IMG/VR virus record: IMGVR_UViG_2617270938_000002
Length of the DNA: 13,037 nucleotides
Source of the DNA: a virus
Taxonomy: Duplodnaviria; Heunggongvirae; Uroviricota; Caudoviricetes
Direction: 5' to 3' (one strand)
Shown here one piece after another: positions 1-13,037 of the stretch. The translations under genes were made by a program, and so were the position numbers. Within the stretch, counting starts at the first letter, position 1. Every line of letters starts with the position of its first letter. The notes under the pieces are model-generated. The model saw only the letters and a list, made by a program, of their open reading frames with translations. It had not been told where the DNA came from and ran no database searches.

Positions 1-531
1 TGATGCCGTTCCTGCGCTGGAAGACGCTGACTGAGCCGACGACGCGGCCTGTCCGGCTGACGTGCTGGCTGCACGTGCTGAGCCTGCAGCATCAGTCGCA
101 CGGGTTGCCGCCTCACGGGCTGATGTGCCGGCATCGCTGGCTGACTTCTTCGCGGCTGCTGTGTTCTGCGCCACTGCGGACGCGTTACGCGCCACCTCTT
201 CCACCATCAGTTCAAAGCGGCGCAGTGCCTCCGGACGGGCATCATCCTCCGTCATGGCACCGAGAAAATCATTCAGCGTACCGGGTCGGGAATCTTCATA
301 CACGGTGATGGTCCCGGCATGTGACGGCGGGAATCCTTCCACCAACAGAATAACGCTGTACTGACCGTACTCAACGTCCATGCTGTAACGCCCGGCTTCA
401 TCCGGATTTTCAGATGCCACCGTGTTCACCACCACCGTGGTGCTGTTACGTTTTGCTTTCAGCTGGATTGTGCAGTTCTGTACCGGTTTACCTGCACCGT
501 CTTTCAGTACACCTGAAATCTTTACTGCCAT
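1..531 (-). CDS. stf: Side tail fibre protein Stf, N-terminal 177 codons; gene runs off the left edge of the window
   Basis: Minus-strand ATG at 531-529, in frame to position 1 with no stop. Translation begins MAVKISGVLKDGAGKPVQNCTIQLKAKRNSTTVVVNTVASENPDEAGRYSMDVEYGQYSV, matching the lambda Stf (orf-401) N-terminus as I recall it. GGGGTG Shine-Dalgarno-like motif upstream. Absent from the ORF track because it has no stop in the window. Confidence 0.8.
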   Translation of the reverse strand, partial: MAVKISGVLKDGAGKPVQNCTIQLKAKRNSTTVVVNTVASENPDEAGRYSMDVEYGQYSVILLVEGFPPSHAGTITVYEDSRPGTLNDFLGAMTEDDARPEALRRFELMVEEVARNASAVAQNTAAAKKSASDAGTSAREAATRATDAAGSARAASTSAGQAASSAQSASSSAGTAS

Positions 532-548
532 ATTCACCCCACAAAAAA

Positions 549-568
549 GCCCGCCTGAACCGGCGGGC
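549..568 (-). terminator. Rho-independent terminator downstream of lom
   Basis: Stem GCCCGCC (549-555) / GGCGGGC (562-568) with 6-nt loop; on the minus strand it is followed by a TTTTTT run (complement of the A-run at 543-548). Lies between the lom stop (596) and the stf start (531). Confidence 0.6.
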
Positions 569-595
569 TGTCATAACACTGTGTTACCTGGCTAA

Positions 596-1195
596 TCAGA
601 ACTTATAACCGACACCCATGATGAAACCGTCAGTGCGCCAGTCACCACTGCCGGAGCCTTCATAAGCAATATCAATGGCCACGGATTCGGTCGGGTTAAA
701 CTGCACGCCAGCCCCCCACGCCAGAGACGTGTTGCTGCGGCGACCGTCATCACTTCCGGTCAGCACGTCGTGCGTTTTCCCCTTGTTGTCAGTTACGCGG
801 AGATAATCCCCGGAGAAAGTCGACACACGGCTGTAAGCCACACCCGCCATCGCATACGCGCTGAACCATTCATTCACGCGCACAGACGGCCCCGCCATTA
901 CGCTGAACCAGCGGTTACGAACGGAATCTTCATGCCAGCGGGTATCGCTGTAACGGGTAAGCTGGCGATTCTTGTCTCCTGCATAGCTGAATGACGTCAC
1001 CAGCCCCAGTGTGTCCGTAAACTCATAACGGTATTTCACGTTAATCCCGTTCAGATCATCGCTGCCGGGAACGTTGGTCCGGGCATGAAGATACCCCGCG
1101 CTCAGCGTGGACTGATGTTCAGATGCCCATGCAGGCGCACCGGATACGGCCAGACAAATGGCTGCGGACAAAATGGCGGCATAAAGTTTACGCAT
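596..1195 (-). CDS. lom: Lom outer-membrane protein (Ail/Lom/PagC family), 199 aa
   Basis: ORF translation has a signal-peptide-like N-terminus ([24 protein letters not shown]) and a C-terminal aromatic residue (GVGYKF) typical of beta-barrel outer-membrane proteins; overall resemblance to lambda Lom; sits between J and stf as in lambda; GAGAGGT Shine-Dalgarno upstream. Confidence 0.9.
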
Positions 1196-1218
1196 AATTA
1201 CCTCTCGCTTTTCTGCAA

Positions 1219-1243
1219 TAAAAAAGGCACCATTTCTGGTGCC
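1219..1243 (-). terminator. Rho-independent terminator between J and lom
   Basis: Stem GGCACC (1226-1231) / GGTGCC (1238-1243) with flanking A-T pairs, followed on the minus strand by TTTTTTATT (complement of 1219-1225). Confidence 0.55.
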
Positions 1244-1264
1244 TTTATATGGGTTATAACAACT

Positions 1265-3685
<2,421 letters not shown>

Positions 3686-3741
3686 TCACGCTCCATAAAC
3701 GACAAAACCGCCCGCAGGCGGTTTCACATAAACGTTTTTCA

Positions 3742-4389
3742 TCAGCGACCAATCACCACAACCTGACCACCATCCCCTTCGTCTGCCGTGCTGATCTCCT
3801 GAGAGACCACCCGCGACCCCACGCGCATTTCACCGTACAGAACGGGCAGAACATTGCCCTGGGCAACCATGTTATCCAGTGACGAGAAATAGGTGTTCTG
3901 TTTGCCGTTATCTGTACTTGCTGCCGTGGGCGTCCTGGCTTTCGGTGCCAGCATCTGCGCCACTCCGCCCAGGATCATACTGGCCCCTGCCGCATACATG
4001 CCCGATACAGCCGCGGCACCCAGCCAGCCCACAGGGTTCCACCATGCCACCGCAATCAGCGCCGCCCCCAGCACCACCTGAAACACACCGCCACTTTTAG
4101 CTCCCGCCAGACGCGGCACGATGTGGATCACGGCACCATTTGCCAGCGGCTCATTAAGACGGGCAGACAATTCGGTTTCACCTGCATCACGCCCGGCAAT
4201 GCGTACCTGGTACCAGCCGTCGCTCAGTTTCTGACGAAACGCCGGGATCTGCATGGCCAGCGCCCGGATGGCTTCGGACCCCGTTTTCACTCGAAGGTCG
4301 ATGCGGCGGCCAAATCGTTGTAAATCCCCGTAAAGGCAGATGCGTGCCATGCCCGGTGACGCCAGAGGGAGTGTGTGCGTCGCTGCCAT
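3742..4389 (-). CDS. I: Tail assembly protein I, 215 aa
   Basis: Translation MAATHTLPLASPGMARICLYGDLQRFGRRIDLRVKTG ... NGKQNTYFSSLDNMVAQGNVLPVLYGEMRVGSRVVSQEISTADEGDGGQVVVIGR matches lambda I at both ends; correct position between K and J. Confidence 0.9.
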   Translation of the reverse strand: MAATHTLPLASPGMARICLYGDLQRFGRRIDLRVKTGSEAIRALAMQIPAFRQKLSDGWYQVRIAGRDAGETELSARLNEPLANGAVIHIVPRLAGAKSGGVFQVVLGAALIAVAWWNPVGWLGAAAVSGMYAAGASMILGGVAQMLAPKARTPTAASTDNGKQNTYFSSLDNMVAQGNVLPVLYGEMRVGSRVVSQEISTADEGDGGQVVVIGR

Positions 4390-5030
4390 TTGTCGGTGTA
4401 CCTCTCTCGTTTGCTCAGTTGTTCAGGAATATGGTGCAGCAGCTCGCCATCACCACAGTAAATGGCGGCATGATTCGGCACCGATGAACCAAAACAGCAC
4501 AGCAGCACATCGCCCGGTTGTGCTGATGACAACGGCACCTGATACAGCCCTGTGGCCTCCAGATTATCCAGATAGAGATTCTGACCGTGACGCCACCAGT
4601 CATCCCCGCGATGAAAATCCGGCATCTCAATCCCCGCCAGATGATAAGCATCCCGGAACAGCGTGTAACAGTCCGTCACCCCGTGCTCAAAGCGCCGCCC
4701 GGTGAGATGCGGCACACAGCGGAACTTATGAATCGTCCCCCGGCAGACCAGCCACCACGGCAAATCACTCTGCACCTGCAGCCGCCGGTCGGCCTCACTC
4801 AGCCAGGGCAGACCACCGGGGTGGCTGTGGACCAGTGCCACAATCTCTCCCTGCATTTCTGCACTCAGCCAGTCCTCCGGCGACATCCGGAAATACGCCT
4901 CCGGCTCACCGGAGATATTCACGCAGGGAAAATATCTTTCCCCCTCCGGTGTTCTCACCACGAAGCCGCACGACTCCGCTGGCGCACATCGCCGGGCGTG
5001 CGCCAGAATCGCTGATTCTGTCTCTGTCAT
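4287..5030 (-). CDS. K: Tail assembly protein K (MPN/JAMM plus NlpC/P60 domains), 247 aa from the ATG at 5030
   Basis: JAMM motif HSHPGGLPWLSEAD (HxHx7Sx2D) and an NlpC/P60-like Cys...His arrangement (TDCYTLF ... NHAAIY). Overlaps I by 103 bp, the same length I recall for the lambda K/I overlap. The ORF-track ORF begins at a GTG at 5039; the lambda-annotated start would correspond to the internal Met at 4886. Confidence 0.85.
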   Translation of the reverse strand: MTETESAILAHARRCAPAESCGFVVRTPEGERYFPCVNISGEPEAYFRMSPEDWLSAEMQGEIVALVHSHPGGLPWLSEADRRLQVQSDLPWWLVCRGTIHKFRCVPHLTGRRFEHGVTDCYTLFRDAYHLAGIEMPDFHRGDDWWRHGQNLYLDNLEATGLYQVPLSSAQPGDVLLCCFGSSVPNHAAIYCGDGELLHHIPEQLSKRERYTDKWQRRTHSLWRHRAWHASAFTGIYNDLAAASTFE

Positions 5031-5035
5031 GGGAT

Positions 5036-5734
5036 TCACTGCGAAAGTTTGTTAATGGAAAGGAAGCCGCCAAAGTTGCCGACGTTATTGCGAAACTTAC
5101 AGCCGCTCAGGCATTTGCTGCATTTATCCTTCGTGATATCGGACGTCGGCTGATCATATTCATCCGCGACCGCCGGACCGTGATAACCGCACTCATCACC
5201 GCGATAGGTCCAGGTGCAGGTGTTGGCCAGCATGATACGTCCCGGAAAAACGGCACCGTCCGTTTCCGTCGGCGTGGACAGTACAAAAGAGGCACTCACC
5301 GCGCTCAGTTCGCTGCACTGCTCGATGCGCCAGCGGCTGATCACCTCCTGCTCCGGATCGGCGTCACTGTTTCCGTTGACGAAGTTCACCGCATCCAGAA
5401 AACGGGCGTAAACCTTACGCCGGACCACCGTTCCTCCGACCAGACTCTGCAGGTCTTCCGCCATCCCGGTGACCATGCCGTGCAGGTTAGAAACCGTCAG
5501 TGTCGGACGGGCAGCACTGCCCTTGCCGTTCAGTTCAAATCCCGTCCCCTGAATGGGATACGCCTGATACTGTCGCCCCTGCCAGGTGACCGGCTCACCT
5601 TTTTCGTTCTGCTCATTACAGAAAAAATAACGTTCTCCACCGACCTCTGTCAGATCGATTTCCCAGAGCACCACCTGGGCTGACTGAGTGAGGCGTGTCG
5701 TCTCATGATGTGTTTCCTGTGGAATATCCTGCAT
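5036..5734 (-). CDS. L: Minor tail protein L, 232 aa
   Basis: Translation MQDIPQETHH...VVLWEIDLTEVGGERYFFCNEQNEKGEPVTWQGRQYQAYPIQG...CSKCLSGCKFRNNVGNFGGFLSINKLSQ matches lambda L; same length as lambda L. Confidence 0.9.
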   Translation of the reverse strand: MQDIPQETHHETTRLTQSAQVVLWEIDLTEVGGERYFFCNEQNEKGEPVTWQGRQYQAYPIQGTGFELNGKGSAARPTLTVSNLHGMVTGMAEDLQSLVGGTVVRRKVYARFLDAVNFVNGNSDADPEQEVISRWRIEQCSELSAVSASFVLSTPTETDGAVFPGRIMLANTCTWTYRGDECGYHGPAVADEYDQPTSDITKDKCSKCLSGCKFRNNVGNFGGFLSINKLSQ

Positions 5735-5743
5735 CAGAGACTC

Positions 5744-6073
5744 CTATGCCACGACCTGTTCAAAATCTGCCGTTATGGTTACCCACAACGCCCCCACGCT
5801 TGCCGACCATTTACGACAAACCACCCTGATCGGCTTCCAGTCATAAGGTGGCGTCCACTGAAATGCGCGGACGCCACCGTGCCGTTCCAGAAAGGCTTTT
5901 AAAGATGGGTGTTCACATTTACGAACACGTATCGTCACGCTGTAAGTCGACAACTGGTTATTCAGTCCCGCCGCACGACGCTGTTCATAACCATCGCCCA
6001 GCTTCACTGTCACCACTTTCGGCTCTGATACCACATTCATATCCGGGCGCACTTTCCAGTGAAACGTCTCCAT
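5744..6073 (-). CDS. M: Minor tail protein M, 109 aa
   Basis: Translation METFHWKVRPDMNVVSEPKVVTVKLGDGYEQRRAAGLNNQL... matches lambda M; same length; start overlaps the H-fragment stop (TAATG). Confidence 0.9.
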   Translation of the reverse strand: METFHWKVRPDMNVVSEPKVVTVKLGDGYEQRRAAGLNNQLSTYSVTIRVRKCEHPSLKAFLERHGGVRAFQWTPPYDWKPIRVVCRKWSASVGALWVTITADFEQVVA

Positions 6074-7083
6074 TACCGATATGCTCCACTTAACCGACCA
6101 CCATCACGGGCCTGCTGTTGCATAAAGTCCGCTGCCGCTTTTTTCCCAAGGTCATAAACCACCTTCAGGGCAGCCGGACCTATCTGCCCGTTCGTGCCAT
6201 CGTTATTGATCTCGATGTTGTACTGCGGGGCAAACATCGCCATACCTGAACCACCAATATCCGCCACAACCCCCAGCTTACCGTCAGCACCACGACGCAG
6301 TGGCAGAATGGCTTCAGGTCCAGCTTCCCCCATCACACCCGCGCCTTTTGCAAAAGCAAAAAACGTCGGACGGTTAACCACCGTGCCACTGTAACGACTC
6401 AAATCAGCAGACTGATAAATCCCCCCATTGGCATTCAGGGAAAGGCTGCTGAGATCAAATCCCAGTACACTGCCAATCCCTTTTATCGATTTCATCATGG
6501 TTGCCTGCGCCAGGATTTTCGCCATATCTGACAGCACCGAAGAGGTGAAGGATTTGAAGTTGAGTTTGCCGGTAGTGACAAAAGTTGCCAGGCCATTTCC
6601 CATGTTGCTGAAGGCTGACGAGAACCCCTGTTCTGCTGTTCCTGCCGTATTGTCTGCATCCACGGTAAAATCCTGAAATGCACGCAGGACTCCGTTTTTC
6701 CAGTTACCCTGCACAACTTCAAGCTGTTGCCAGTAACGGCGATTCTCATTCAGTTGTCGGTTCAGGCTCTCCGTCAGCGCCTGCTCGGCCTTTCTGTAGT
6801 CATCCGTGTTATATGTCCCTTTCTGCTCACTATCCCGCCTCAACTGCTCCAGCTGTTGCTGGTATTTCTGGCGAAGACTCAGTTGTACCTGATATCGCTG
6901 CCGCTGCTGATCACCCATACCGCCAATAACCCCGCCAAGCATCATGCCTTTCGGTGACATCAGAGTGTCTATCCATCCGGCACGGTTAGCCAGCGTTATC
7001 CCGGATCCCCTCACAGACGGATTGCGCCCGGAGCGTGTCGCATTGTGGTCATGTTCTCGCTGTGCCAGTCGGAATGAGGCCAC
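6073..7083 (-). pseudogene. H: Tail tape-measure protein H, C-terminal fragment only (N-terminal part of the gene absent)
   Basis: The C-terminal part of the 336-aa ORF (INNDGTNGQIGPAALKVVYDLGKKAAADFMQQQARDGG) resembles the lambda H C-terminus and is followed directly by M. Lambda H is 853 aa, but only about 1 kb of gene is present here and the ORF's N-terminal residues do not look like tape-measure sequence. The upstream limit of the fragment is uncertain. Confidence 0.75.
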
Positions 7084-7368
7084 TGGCAGCCTTTTTCACG
7101 AAGTAACCAGCTTTCAAGACATTCCACGCCACCAGCACGACGGATCACTGCCTCATCGCGGAACACGGCCCGAACGGCAGGATCATCCGCCAGCGGTTGT
7201 GATGCCGCCGGAACGGCACCACTGGCGAAAGATGAATAACGCTCCGGCTCAGGCTCCAGCAGGACACGCCCCTGCATAAACAGGGGCATCAGCTCTGAAC
7301 CTGGCCTGAACAATACGATCCCCATACGCGGGGCAATTTCAGGGGTCAGTAGTGCTCTCACGGTCACC

Positions 7369-11022: not shown

Positions 11023-11697
11023 ATGAAAACAATCCATGACATCCGGCGGTCTAACGCCAGAAAACTGAGAGATGGTGTTGGCGGAAATTCATCCTTTGCC
11101 ACCATGATTGATCGCGAGCCAACCCAAACCAGCAGGTTTATGGGGGATGGCGCTACTAAAAATATCGGTGACAGCATGGCACGGCACATCGAAAAATGTT
11201 TCGACCTGCCTGTCGGATGGCTTGATCAAGAACACCAGACAACGAACATCACAAAAAAACCTGATGTTTCAATCACTAACAAACAAATAACGTTAGTCCC
11301 TGTCATATCATGGGTACAGGCCGGAGCATGGAAAGAAGTTGGCTATTCTGAGGTTGATTTGAGCACAGCAGAAACGTATCCCTGCCCTGTACCCTGTGGC
11401 GAAATGACTTATATCTTGCGGGTGATTGGTGATTCAATGATTGATGAGTACCGCCCTGGAGACATGATTTTTGTTGATCCCGAAGTCCCTGCCTGCCACG
11501 GTGACGACGTTATTGCATTGATGCACGATACAGGCGAAACCACCTTCAAGCGATTGATAGAAGATGGAACACAGCGTTATCTCAAAGCATTAAACCCAAA
11601 CTGGCCTGAGCCTTACATTAAGATTAACGGTAATTGCTCTATAATTGGTACAGTGATTTTCTCGGGAAAACCAAGAAGATACACAATAAAGGCCTAA
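11023..11697 (+). CDS. CI-like prophage repressor with C-terminal S24 (LexA-like) autopeptidase domain, 224 aa
   Basis: C-terminal domain has an Ala-Gly cleavage-site candidate (WVQAGAWKE), the catalytic Ser context (VIGDSMIDEY) and the Lys context (TFKRLIEDG), closely paralleling lambda CI (GNSM ... FKKL). Divergently arranged with the cro-like gene. Confidence 0.8.
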   Translation: MKTIHDIRRSNARKLRDGVGGNSSFATMIDREPTQTSRFMGDGATKNIGDSMARHIEKCFDLPVGWLDQEHQTTNITKKPDVSITNKQITLVPVISWVQAGAWKEVGYSEVDLSTAETYPCPVPCGEMTYILRVIGDSMIDEYRPGDMIFVDPEVPACHGDDVIALMHDTGETTFKRLIEDGTQRYLKALNPNWPEPYIKINGNCSIIGTVIFSGKPRRYTIKA

Positions 11698-11709
11698 TCA
11701 ATATTTATG

Positions 11710-11733
11710 AACCTGCTTCGGCAGGTTTTTTTA
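11710..11733 (+). terminator. Rho-independent terminator after the cI-like gene
   Basis: Stem AACCTGC (11710-11716), loop TTCG, stem GCAGGTT (11721-11727), followed by a T-run through 11732. Confidence 0.7.
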
Positions 11734-11736
11734 TAC

Positions 11737-11769
11737 TTGACAATGTACCCATGAGATACATAATGTATC
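11737..11769 (+). promoter_or_regulatory. pL-like early-left promoter with overlapping operator
   Basis: Consensus -35 TTGACA (11737-11742); -10 candidate CATAAT (11759-11764) with a 16-bp spacer; operator-like TGTACC-catga-GATACA (11744-11760) with the same architecture as the two OR-region sites; perfect 15-bp palindrome GATACATAATGTATC (11755-11769) over the -10. Confidence 0.55.
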
Positions 11770-12202
11770 TAAAAGAAACATAACACAGGCAAGATTAAAA
11801 CAAAATTTGGTTGTAACACGGCGTATGGCACATGCGTCGTTAGCGGTCTGGTGACGTTAAAGGGGACAATCCACTCCTTGCTCGAGCAAACAAACCAGGT
11901 AGCCGGAATGTGCAAGTCAATGATGATGCTGATAAGACGCCTAACCAGCGTGGCGATTCGGTTTGACGCCTGGGAAGAGACCAGGGTGCAACGATGAGGG
12001 CATTTATGGAACCGCGACAAAGTGTGGTGCCGTAACTGGCTAAGTGCTCTCAGCGTTGTGGTGAATGCGCAGACTGATGCGCGAAAGACATTGCAGCTAT
12101 TGCGGAAAAGAGCTGTTCGGCGGGGCAATTAAACGCCCGTGAGAGTCTGAAATAACCGCAAGCCGGAGATCAGCACCGGTCACCACAACAGCCACTGCTT
12201 TG

Positions 12203-12337
12203 GCGGTACCAGTTTGTACACTTGCTTCCGGCTGGTACCGCTCTTTTTACAAAACAGAGAAGAGCATCACCGGACGACGGGCTCATAACCCAATCCATCC
12301 GGGCGGCTGCCACCGCAGGTGTTCTTCTCTGTTTTGT
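12203..12337 (+). promoter_or_regulatory. Structured leader elements upstream of the first early-left gene: two inverted repeats and a boxA-like motif
   Basis: Inverted repeat A: GCGGTACCAG (12203-12212) / CTGGTACCGC (12232-12241). BoxA-like CGCTCTTTTTA (12239-12249). Inverted repeat B: ACAAAACAGAGAAGAGC (12249-12265) / GTTCTTCTCTGTTTTGT (12321-12337), 17 bp with one G-T position, enclosing 55 nt. Function not established. Confidence 0.4.
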
Positions 12338-12385
12338 GGAGAAACTAATCGGCCTTGCAGGGTCGATATGATGAGGAGCAGCAAA

Positions 12386-12748
12386 ATGGCTAGCGAACGC
12401 AGTACTGATGTGCAGGCATTTATCGGGGAGCTGGACGGCGGCGTATTTGAAACCAAAATCGGCGCAGTTCTCAGTGAAGTCGCTTCCGGTGTGATGAACA
12501 CGAAAACCAAAGGTAAGGTCTCACTCAACCTGGAAATCGAACCATTTGATGAGAACCGTGTGAAAATCAAACACAAACTCTCATATGTTCGCCCGACTAA
12601 CCGCGGGAAAATTTCCGAAGAAGACACCACCGAAACGCCGATGTATGTCAATCGCGGTGGTCGCCTGACTATTCTGCAGGAAGACCAGGGACAATTACTG
12701 ACTCTTGCCGGTGAACCTGACGGAAAACTCCGCGCAGCAGGTCATTAA
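12386..12748 (+). CDS. Hypothetical early-left protein, 120 aa
   Basis: ATG at 12386 preceded by GAGGAG (12373-12378) at a 7-nt spacing. The ORF-track ORF 12200..12748 begins at a TTG and its first 62 residues are Cys/Arg-rich junk overlapping the leader stems, so the internal ATG is preferred. No family recognised. Confidence 0.6.
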   Translation: MASERSTDVQAFIGELDGGVFETKIGAVLSEVASGVMNTKTKGKVSLNLEIEPFDENRVKIKHKLSYVRPTNRGKISEEDTTETPMYVNRGGRLTILQEDQGQLLTLAGEPDGKLRAAGH

Positions 12749-12813
12749 TATCGTTCTTAATAAACTGATTATTTATCTCATCACTGAATATCTTTATATA
12801 GTGAGGACTTATT

Positions 12814-13037
12814 ATGTCTCAGAACTTAGACGCAACCGCAATTAATCAAATCCATGCCCTTATTTCTGCTCAGGGTGTTAATGAAATTATCAGTAAGATT
12901 GGTGCCGATGCTGTGGCATTGCCTGAGAATTTCCGCATTCATGATCTGGAAAAATTTAATTTAAATCGCTTCCGTTTCCGTGGTGCGCTTTCCACTGCCA
13001 GCATCGATGACTTTACCCGTTATTCTAAAGATCTTGC
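12814..13037 (+). CDS. Hypothetical protein, N-terminal 74 codons; gene runs off the right edge of the window
   Basis: ATG at 12814 preceded by GAGGA at about 7 nt; open to the window end ([74 protein letters not shown]...). Not in the ORF track because there is no stop in the window. No family recognised. Confidence 0.55.

Follow-up and report, generated by a model that had tools for sequence, protein, structure and literature searches.

Introduction

The genes yfdR, yfdQ and yfdP form a trio that is common in the early-left operons of lambdoid phages, where P and Q have no known function (2025 survey, PMC12315714). In Escherichia coli K-12, where yfdPQ has been handled as one operon (PMC9181523), Noguchi and Katayama found that yfdQRST in multicopy suppresses the over-initiation of hda-185, an effect that required yfdQ and yfdR plus either yfdS or yfdT; extra copies of these genes inhibit DnaA-dependent initiation at oriC, and YfdR binds DnaA through Phe46 (PMC4776307). 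One group of trio-bearing phages (ST64B, phiNP and LLS), whose trio proteins are 76–90% identical among themselves, lacks a homologue of lambda N, and its describers suspect RNA-mediated antitermination (PMC12315714). Such an RNA is known from phage HK022: put, of ∼70 nt with two stem-loops, which occurs as a putL/putR pair (PMC9378689). Here we describe yfdP, yfdQ and the untranslated leader ahead of them, which contains a structured RNA that we call RNA A, in a 13,037-nt sequence of a tailed virus of the Caudoviricetes (IMG/VR record IMGVR_UViG_2617270938_000002). This whole stretch is termed the window.

An earlier note on the window had placed two genes at 12386–12748 and from 12814 (74 codons, cut by the window end), both with good ribosome-binding sites, and its coordinates and description are accurate. 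It took them to match no family, to open the early-left operon and, from their position at an immunity-proximal hotspot, to be candidates for exclusion or accessory functions. What is added here is the obligate pairing of P and Q in a DNA-metabolism context, a clamp-motif hypothesis for YfdP, and a structured RNA together with an apparent leader terminator.

Identity of the two genes

From their sequences, the two open reading frames (ORFs) are almost certainly yfdP and the 5′ quarter of yfdQ.

12386–12748, plus strand: yfdP, complete, 120 aa; 99% identity to ‘protein YfdP’; PF27127 and PHROG 204
12814–13037, plus strand: yfdQ (DUF2303), first 74 of 274 codons, the gene being cut by the window end; PF10065

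The 120-aa protein is identical at 119 of 120 residues to the ‘protein YfdP’ cluster (1257 sequences), and the 74 codons of the second gene agree at every position with the N-terminus of the 274-aa YfdQ (cluster P0121, 10,812 members). The YfdQ fragment matches the Pfam model PF10065 (DUF2303) over profile positions 2–69 (E = 1.5e-19; 70.7 bits, cut-off 26.6), and YfdP matches PHROG 204 over residues 1–119 (E = 1.2e-49). Searching YfdP against local copies of Pfam-A and NCBIfam gave no matches, the local Pfam being older than the PF27127 model; a precomputed match to PF27127.1 is carried by all listed YfdP homologues, including the 99%-identical P0001. The YfdP family comprises 437 clusters at 50% identity (E ≤ 1e-3), and its members are small, ∼110–125 aa. 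Its conserved core, seen in an alignment with 111 representatives, includes the motifs LDGGVF, PT.RG and TPMYV..GG, all present in the window protein. The Shine-Dalgarno sequence of yfdP, GAGGAG, lies at 12374–12379, 6 nt 5′ of the ATG; yfdQ begins with the ATG at 12814, preceded by GAGGA at 12803–12807, and the spacer between the two genes is 65 nt.

The same genes are frequent in E. coli. A megablast search with 11690–13037 found a match in 3090 of 5426 complete E. coli genomes, with query cover of at least 80% in 1171 of them. RefSeq annotates the matched region as ymfK (a LexA-family repressor), yfdP and yfdQ, and in hundreds of E. coli genomes its yfdP and yfdQ calls coincide in position with the two ORFs. 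YfdP and YfdQ are already catalogued families, and the window reveals no new gene system. The family matches and near-total identities refute the earlier statement that no family is matched, and for these two genes our result is mainly a correction. The word ‘uncharacterised’ was well chosen: the biochemical role of P and Q is still not known (PMC12315714).

A constant gene pair behind a variable slot

Distant YfdP loci were chosen by 25–40% identity to a distant family representative. In all four of the distant lineages examined, a DUF2303 gene lies directly 3′ of the YfdP-family gene. The two are separated by 4 nt in Alcanivorax and by 63 nt in Mannheimia, where the pair comes directly after genes for Sipho_Gp157, AAA_24 and SSB. 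Xanthomonas phage MET23-P3 has ERF and YqaJ genes downstream of the pair, and in a Pseudomonas metagenome-assembled genome the pair lies a few genes 3′ of an S24 repressor gene. This P-then-Q rule, derived empirically here, also holds in the window and in its E. coli relative.

Close relatives were compared using 80 IMG/VR loci whose YfdP is 100% identical to that of the window. Across these loci the genes and the yfdP-proximal part of the leader are constant, and the segment from cI to that part of the leader is variable: RNA A occupies it in 50 loci, and in the other 30 assorted small ORFs (54–122 aa) replace RNA A together with the adjoining leader module B. In the 80 loci (L153–L232) the region up to 1.5 kb 5′ of yfdP was inspected.

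Because the pair is constant while the upstream segment varies, and because it is kept across distant taxa, yfdPQ is not cargo of the slot; it is a linked backbone cassette among the replication and recombination genes of the early operon. The exchangeable immunity-proximal slot is instead the segment between cI and the yfdP-proximal leader (module C). The hotspot foreseen in the earlier note is thus real, as the 30 small-ORF loci demonstrate, but it lies 5′ of yfdP and leaves the genes untouched, and the neighbourhood in related prophages is a yfdPQRST-xis-int backbone rather than an accessory system.

RNA A

In the window, the exchangeable slot holds an unannotated RNA for which we found neither an Rfam model nor literature.

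11815–12012, plus strand: RNA A, ∼190–198 nt; helices P1, P2, P4 and P5 and a covarying pseudoknot; unannotated

Judged by its aligned copies, RNA A is a structured phage RNA whose covariation is as strong as that of curated families. The alignment holds 27 sequences no more than 95% alike, taken from IMG/VR and from one genome per species, the latter including Kosakonia, Phytobacter, Citrobacter, Klebsiella, Kluyvera, Enterobacter and Erwinia dacicola. Of the alignment cells at proposed pairs, 99.4% can pair, against 28–44% when the partners are slid by 1–3 columns. Changes on both sides occur in 11 pairs (74 cells), and none of 500 shuffles matches the observed values. The pseudoknot joins 11943–11946 with 11960–11963, and one of its pairs covaries, C-G becoming A-U in four sequences; a second long-range pairing, 11828–11833 with 11908–11913 (GCACAU/AUGUGC), is invariant, which neither supports nor contradicts it. 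The G-U pairs, of which there are several, assign the RNA to the plus strand. Length differences in the variable regions do not come in multiples of three, and no ORF is kept among the copies. The thermodynamic stability of RNA A equals that of shuffled sequences (z = −0.12), so the case for it rests on covariation and not on energy. An alternative outer pairing proposed by RNAalifold (columns 6–8 with 110–112) was rejected, since it shows no compensatory changes whereas the local P1 hairpin does.

A covariance model of 184 positions scores the window copy at 162 bits (E = 8e-50). Run with filters off it found no second copy in the window (next best 9.6 bits), and it had no match in the distant YfdP loci. 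Rfam 15 gave no matches anywhere in the window at gathering thresholds. A permissive Rfam search of 11650–12450 (E ≤ 5) gave only two weak, chance-level matches overlapping RNA A: CC0196, antisense, at 11889–11937 (14.6 bits, E = 1.6), and snoR35, which reaches slightly further into module B. Searching the literature for strings of the RNA A sequence returned no match.

Of 5426 complete E. coli genomes, 1834 (about a third) contain sequence related to RNA A. In the listed E. coli records no feature is annotated under the match except one CRISPR spacer. That spacer, of 32 nt, matches the RNA A region perfectly; it belongs to an array by queE in E. coli 2012C-4502 (L239, 701–732; repeat GAGTTCCCCGCGCCAGCGGGGATAAACCG), and therefore a host has acquired immunity against this element. 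Related sequence also occurs on 590 plasmids, mostly of P1 size, and module A is 79% identical to the trnI–ban spacer of P1, which belongs to the C1-controlled ban operon. In P1 (L004, 2424–2786) RNA A lies directly after tRNA-Ile(CAU) and ∼100 nt before the start codon of ban, which encodes a DnaB-like helicase; the operon, repressed by C1, also holds a dicF-like region and three tRNAs, and RNA A fills an unannotated spacer in it. Module A is found just 5′ of tRNA-Arg(UCU) in the epsilon15-like phages phiV10 and SPN9TCW as well, and at the post-repressor position of the lambdoid phage mEp390. Among 145 RNA A copies surveyed, yfdP lies within 2.5 kb downstream in 62 and a tRNA immediately downstream in 29; 21 copies lie between a tRNA and ban, and 38 have an S24 repressor gene upstream.

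Function of the yfdPQ pair

The most economical reading of the early-left module is that it acts on the host replication apparatus, since DnaA is bound by YfdR and it was an hda phenotype that led to the cluster. On this reading the cassette would be part of the DNA-replication or DNA-metabolism functions of the early operon, YfdP being a small adaptor that acts together with an oligomeric YfdQ and whose disordered C-terminal tail would dock on the host β sliding clamp. We consider the case for a role in DNA replication or DNA metabolism, in place of superinfection exclusion, to be evenly balanced.

Structural data bear on both proteins. The Protein Data Bank (PDB) entry 9o7m, ‘YfdQ Protein’, contains 36 chains of a YfdQ homologue and aligns over residues 16–272 in a PDB sequence search (E = 4e-44). 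The same kind of search, with close and distant profiles, found no YfdP-family protein, and YfdR is not in 9o7m; looking for literature on 9o7m or recent work on YfdQ, we found nothing relevant. The AlphaFold2 (AF2) model of YfdP (pLDDT 79) has a helix at 9–39, three long strands at 44–88 and a disordered tail, in which residues 99–106 have pLDDT below 50; it is a soluble α+β fold, not a membrane protein.

Of the 108 representatives with a tail of scorable length, 65 carry the pattern Q..[LMIFV][FLYIM] in it. Among these 65 carriers the fourth position is L or M in 59 and the fifth is F in 55, giving the form Q-x-[D/Q/S]-[L/M]-F, with examples QTDMF, QSDMF, QLSLF and QGQLF. The bacterial clamp-binding consensus is QL[S/D]LF, more generally QxxLF, and DNA polymerase III (Pol III) α has QADMF (PMC12309361). 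The tail peptide that carries the motif in the window is LTILQEDQGQLLTLAG. Docking of the YfdP tail on the host β clamp, suggested by this pattern, is a speculative proposal and on balance unlikely.

Several points weigh against the replication reading or its clamp component. In K-12, yfdP is dispensable for the replication phenotype and deletion of yfdQRST has no phenotype (PMC4776307). The DUF2303 protein gp10 is virion-associated in Burkholderia phage JC1, which fits poorly with a purely intracellular role in replication (PMC9144972). The motif of the window YfdP reads QGQLL (Q101, L104, L105), ending in L and not F, and ∼40% of the family lacks the strict motif; the conserved stretch of the tail could equally be an interface with YfdQ.

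In a different DNA-metabolism role, in recombination or the handling of DNA ends, the pair would, for example, anneal DNA or protect its ends as an assembly, in place of Red/RecET-type modules or in support of them. Many annealases form rings or filaments, and the YfdQ-homologue assembly is large (the 36 chains of 9o7m); the N-terminal part of YfdQ has an invariant basic motif, RFRFRG. In two of the four distant lineages the neighbours include SSB, the Sak4-like AAA_24, ERF and YqaJ. The pair sits at the usual position of lambdoid recombination genes and occurs in phages without a recognisable recombination (Rec) module (PMC12315714). The same survey judged a recombination role of the trio unlikely, the trio being found also in phages with full recombination modules (PMC12315714), and fold similarity to Rad52/RecT/Erf or to Gam/Ku was not found. 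We regard this explanation as doubtful.

Less probable again is the view of the earlier note, that yfdPQ is accessory cargo at the immunity-proximal hotspot and serves superinfection exclusion or anti-host killing in the manner of rexAB, sieB or kil. Position speaks for it, the pair lying directly 3′ of the repressor gene and pL in a neighbourhood that is truly variable in relatives, as does the lack of a known function for P and Q (PMC12315714). But the variable slot stops 5′ of module C, and the yfdPQ pair does not have the moron-like variable distribution expected of exclusion genes, being invariant in the close loci and paired in the four distant lineages. No PADLOC defence model matched YfdP, YfdQ, YfdR, YfdS or YfdT at E ≤ 0.01; Pfam, PHROG and NCBIfam put no exclusion annotation on the proteins; the YfdP model is soluble; and the published experiments point to DnaA and oriC.

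An equally improbable alternative is that yfdPQR is a counter-defence unit which, for example, removes nucleotide-derived signals or acts on deoxynucleotide pools, with YfdR as a 5′-nucleotidase. Counter-defence genes are often expressed early, so the early position fits, and YfdR is an HD-domain 5′-deoxynucleotidase; but the proteins resemble no described anti-defence protein in the searches made, and the documented partner of YfdR is DnaA.

The least likely proposal, that virions contain YfdQ (perhaps YfdP too) and deliver it together with the DNA to act at or before the first minutes of infection, would suit the detection of JC1 gp10 in purified virions (PMC9144972) and, by our reasoning, the 36 copies in 9o7m as a symmetric particle component, but at every locus examined the genes are in the early operon, far from structural genes, the K-12 phenotype comes from plasmid expression where virions are absent, and the support is one proteomics observation in a distant phage.

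The P–Q pair is strictly linked across distant phages, and many E. coli genomes, a large share of the total, contain it. The solved structure 9o7m and the clamp-motif idea offer a cheap, direct test.

The leader of the early operon

The leader that contains RNA A begins at a pL-like promoter and is a mosaic of modules, as judged by BLAST. The other features between the repressor gene and yfdP are the following.

11709–11728, plus strand: intrinsic terminator that ends the repressor transcript, an 8-bp stem then a T-run; annotated as a terminator in phage Ayreon
11737–11764, plus strand: pL-like promoter, TTGACA-16-CATAAT, 11 of 12 consensus positions matched; a promoter is annotated here in Ayreon
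11754–11770: perfect 17-bp palindrome AGATACATAATGTATCT over the −10 hexamer; unique in the window, 0.01 chance matches expected
12041–12190, plus strand: leader module B, found by mosaic BLAST matches; fills the place of a tRNA in relatives
12202–12249, plus strand: hairpin C1 with a U-tract, terminator-like; GC-rich stem GGCGGUACCAG/CUGGUACCGC, then UCUUUUU
12241–12342, plus strand: hairpin C2, ∼25-bp stem; its base covaries across genera and its apical part is conserved in sequence
12349–12366, plus strand: hairpin C3, short, directly 5′ of the yfdP ribosome-binding site

The palindrome could serve as an OL operator. TACA/TGTA half-sites related to it can be seen in the interval that separates the cro-like gene from cI.

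From the promoter to the yfdP start codon there are ∼615 nt without a credible ORF. Three candidates were rejected: a 48-aa ORF at 11851–11997, a 119-aa antisense ORF at 11769–12128 and an in-frame extension of yfdP from a TTG at 12200. No ORF is kept across copies, the indels are not multiples of three, and the frames overlap covarying helices. Neither a tRNA or tmRNA nor an N-like ORF was found in the leader. The earlier description of the two genes as opening the early-left operon holds in that they are the first coding genes behind the pL-like promoter; the operon itself opens with a structured untranslated leader of 615 nt.

RNA A begins ∼45–50 nt after the predicted start site of the pL-like promoter and is followed by module B. 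A possible closing stem of module B pairs GUUGUGGUGA (12055–12064) with UCACCACAAC (12180–12189), and its fold is no more stable than shuffled sequences (z = −0.88). In phiV10 and SPN9TCW tRNA-Arg begins directly after AGUGCUCUCAGCGUUGUGG, a tRNA 5′ leader that is shared with module B. A 45-nt core of module B (12041–12088) recurs at ∼90% identity in unrelated Klebsiella phages of 39–160 kb.

The yfdP-proximal part of the leader is of another character. The segment 12196–12390 folds at −86.8 kcal/mol (z = −6.05), and none of 200 shuffles is as stable. C1 looks like a conserved intrinsic terminator, ∼140 nt 5′ of yfdP: Phytobacter and Kosakonia have a different C1 sequence, and a stem followed by AUUUUUU is preserved. 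Its long loop caused it to be missed by the terminator scan. The C2/C3 region is found in yfdP loci with or without RNA A. Together, 12202–12366 may constitute a leader terminator and an element for processing or translation control.

A proposed role for RNA A

If the RNA is taken as real, one possible function for it, suggested by analogy and short of probable, is antitermination or an anti-Rho activity in cis. We favour it because the order is promoter, RNA, terminator, genes in an operon without N, and because RNA A heads untranslated tRNA units that would be exposed to Rho. As a processive antiterminator or anti-Rho element, RNA A would work in cis on the polymerase transcribing it and would let long untranslated early transcripts (tRNA arrays and the yfdP leader) proceed, in the present case past the leader terminator into yfdPQRST-xis-int. 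Alternatively, RNA A may be free-standing, or serve as a riboswitch-like sensor or in processing. The full combination, in which RNA A is a new antiterminator or anti-Rho class, unrelated to put and common to lambdoid, P1-like and epsilon15-like phages, and in which YfdP is a clamp adaptor for a YfdQ oligomer, is a tentative proposal that we think unlikely to hold in every part.

Prophage and operon context

The window is a defective lambdoid prophage, a deletion remnant of the e14/SfV/mEp460 type, and is unable to form particles. Its repressor gene lies immediately ahead of the region described above.

11023–11697, plus strand: CI-type repressor gene, ymfK-like, LexA/S24 family; Pfam Peptidase_S24, E = 1.5e-26; ymfK in RefSeq annotation of relatives

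The left 7 kb (1–7083, minus strand) holds the tail genes lom, J, I, K, L and M and the C-terminal part of the tape-measure gene; J (1265–3682) is internally deleted, to 805 aa. At a deletion junction near 7010–7085 the start of a DUF968 gene (7011–7367, minus strand; 116 of 329 codons) joins the C-terminal tape-measure fragment (6073–7083). Set against an intact relative, the window lacks the late regulator and the lysis, terminase and head genes, which have been lost by deletion. After the DUF968 fragment come KilA-N, a PerC-like gene, a replication gene, DUF4222, ymfL (cII-like) and ymfT (cro-like), then the divergent repressor gene. On the strand of that gene, and behind the pL-like promoter, yfdP and yfdQ are the first protein-coding genes 3′ of it.

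In the intact E. coli relative the order on the repressor strand is cI, a 690-bp gap, yfdP, yfdQ, yfdR, a yfdS-like gene, yfdT, xis, int and tRNA-Thr; yfdR encodes the HD-domain 5′-deoxynucleotidase and the yfdS-like gene a DUF551 protein. The same module is found in phages mEp460, Ayreon, cdtI and 2H10 and in Stx2 and Stx2c phages. mEp460 has a different repressor, yet its yfdPQ module is near-identical.

Comparison with known systems

The proposed clamp motif can be set beside known partners of the β clamp, Pol III α (QADMF) and Hda (QLSLPL). Like these, most YfdP members carry a candidate short linear motif, located in the predicted disordered tail, that opens with Q and has L or M as its fourth and F as its fifth residue; the window YfdP differs in reading QGQLL.

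The pL leader of lambda contains nutL and, 5′ of the ribosome-binding site of N, a hairpin sensitive to RNase III. The window resembles it in having a long untranslated leader with large hairpins directly 5′ of the ribosome-binding site of the first gene, and differs in having no N gene or recognisable nut site; cleavage by RNase III here would be an analogy only.

The closest described gene set is that of the K-12 prophage CPS-53 (KpLE1), in which the gene families and their order, yfdP-yfdQ-yfdR-yfdS-yfdT, are the same. CPS-53 has lost the immunity region, and an SrsR-bound spacer separates yfdP from yfdO, which it faces (PMC9181523), whereas in the window the cassette stands behind an e14-type repressor gene (ymfK), a pL-like promoter and a 615-nt leader.

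The ‘no Rec module’ lambdoids ST64B, phiNP and LLS are like the window in that the yfdR/yfdQ/yfdP trio starts the early-left operon. If RNA A controls early transcription in N-less lambdoids, this would answer a question posed explicitly in the survey of those phages (PMC12315714).

For such control the nearest likeness is to put of HK022, which is also a structured RNA some tens of nucleotides 3′ of pL in a phage without N, with terminators further downstream. RNA A differs in its size of ∼190 nt, in having at least four helices and a pseudoknot, in being a single copy in the window, and in standing also beside tRNAs in P1 and epsilon15-like phages. Its identification as a put RNA was rejected, since size and structure differ, there is no second copy at an early promoter, and the RNA A model has no match in HK022 pL or pR (E < 0.5). 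If the antitermination proposal is true, RNA A would solve the problem that HK022 meets with put RNA in a second way, by a structure unrelated to put.

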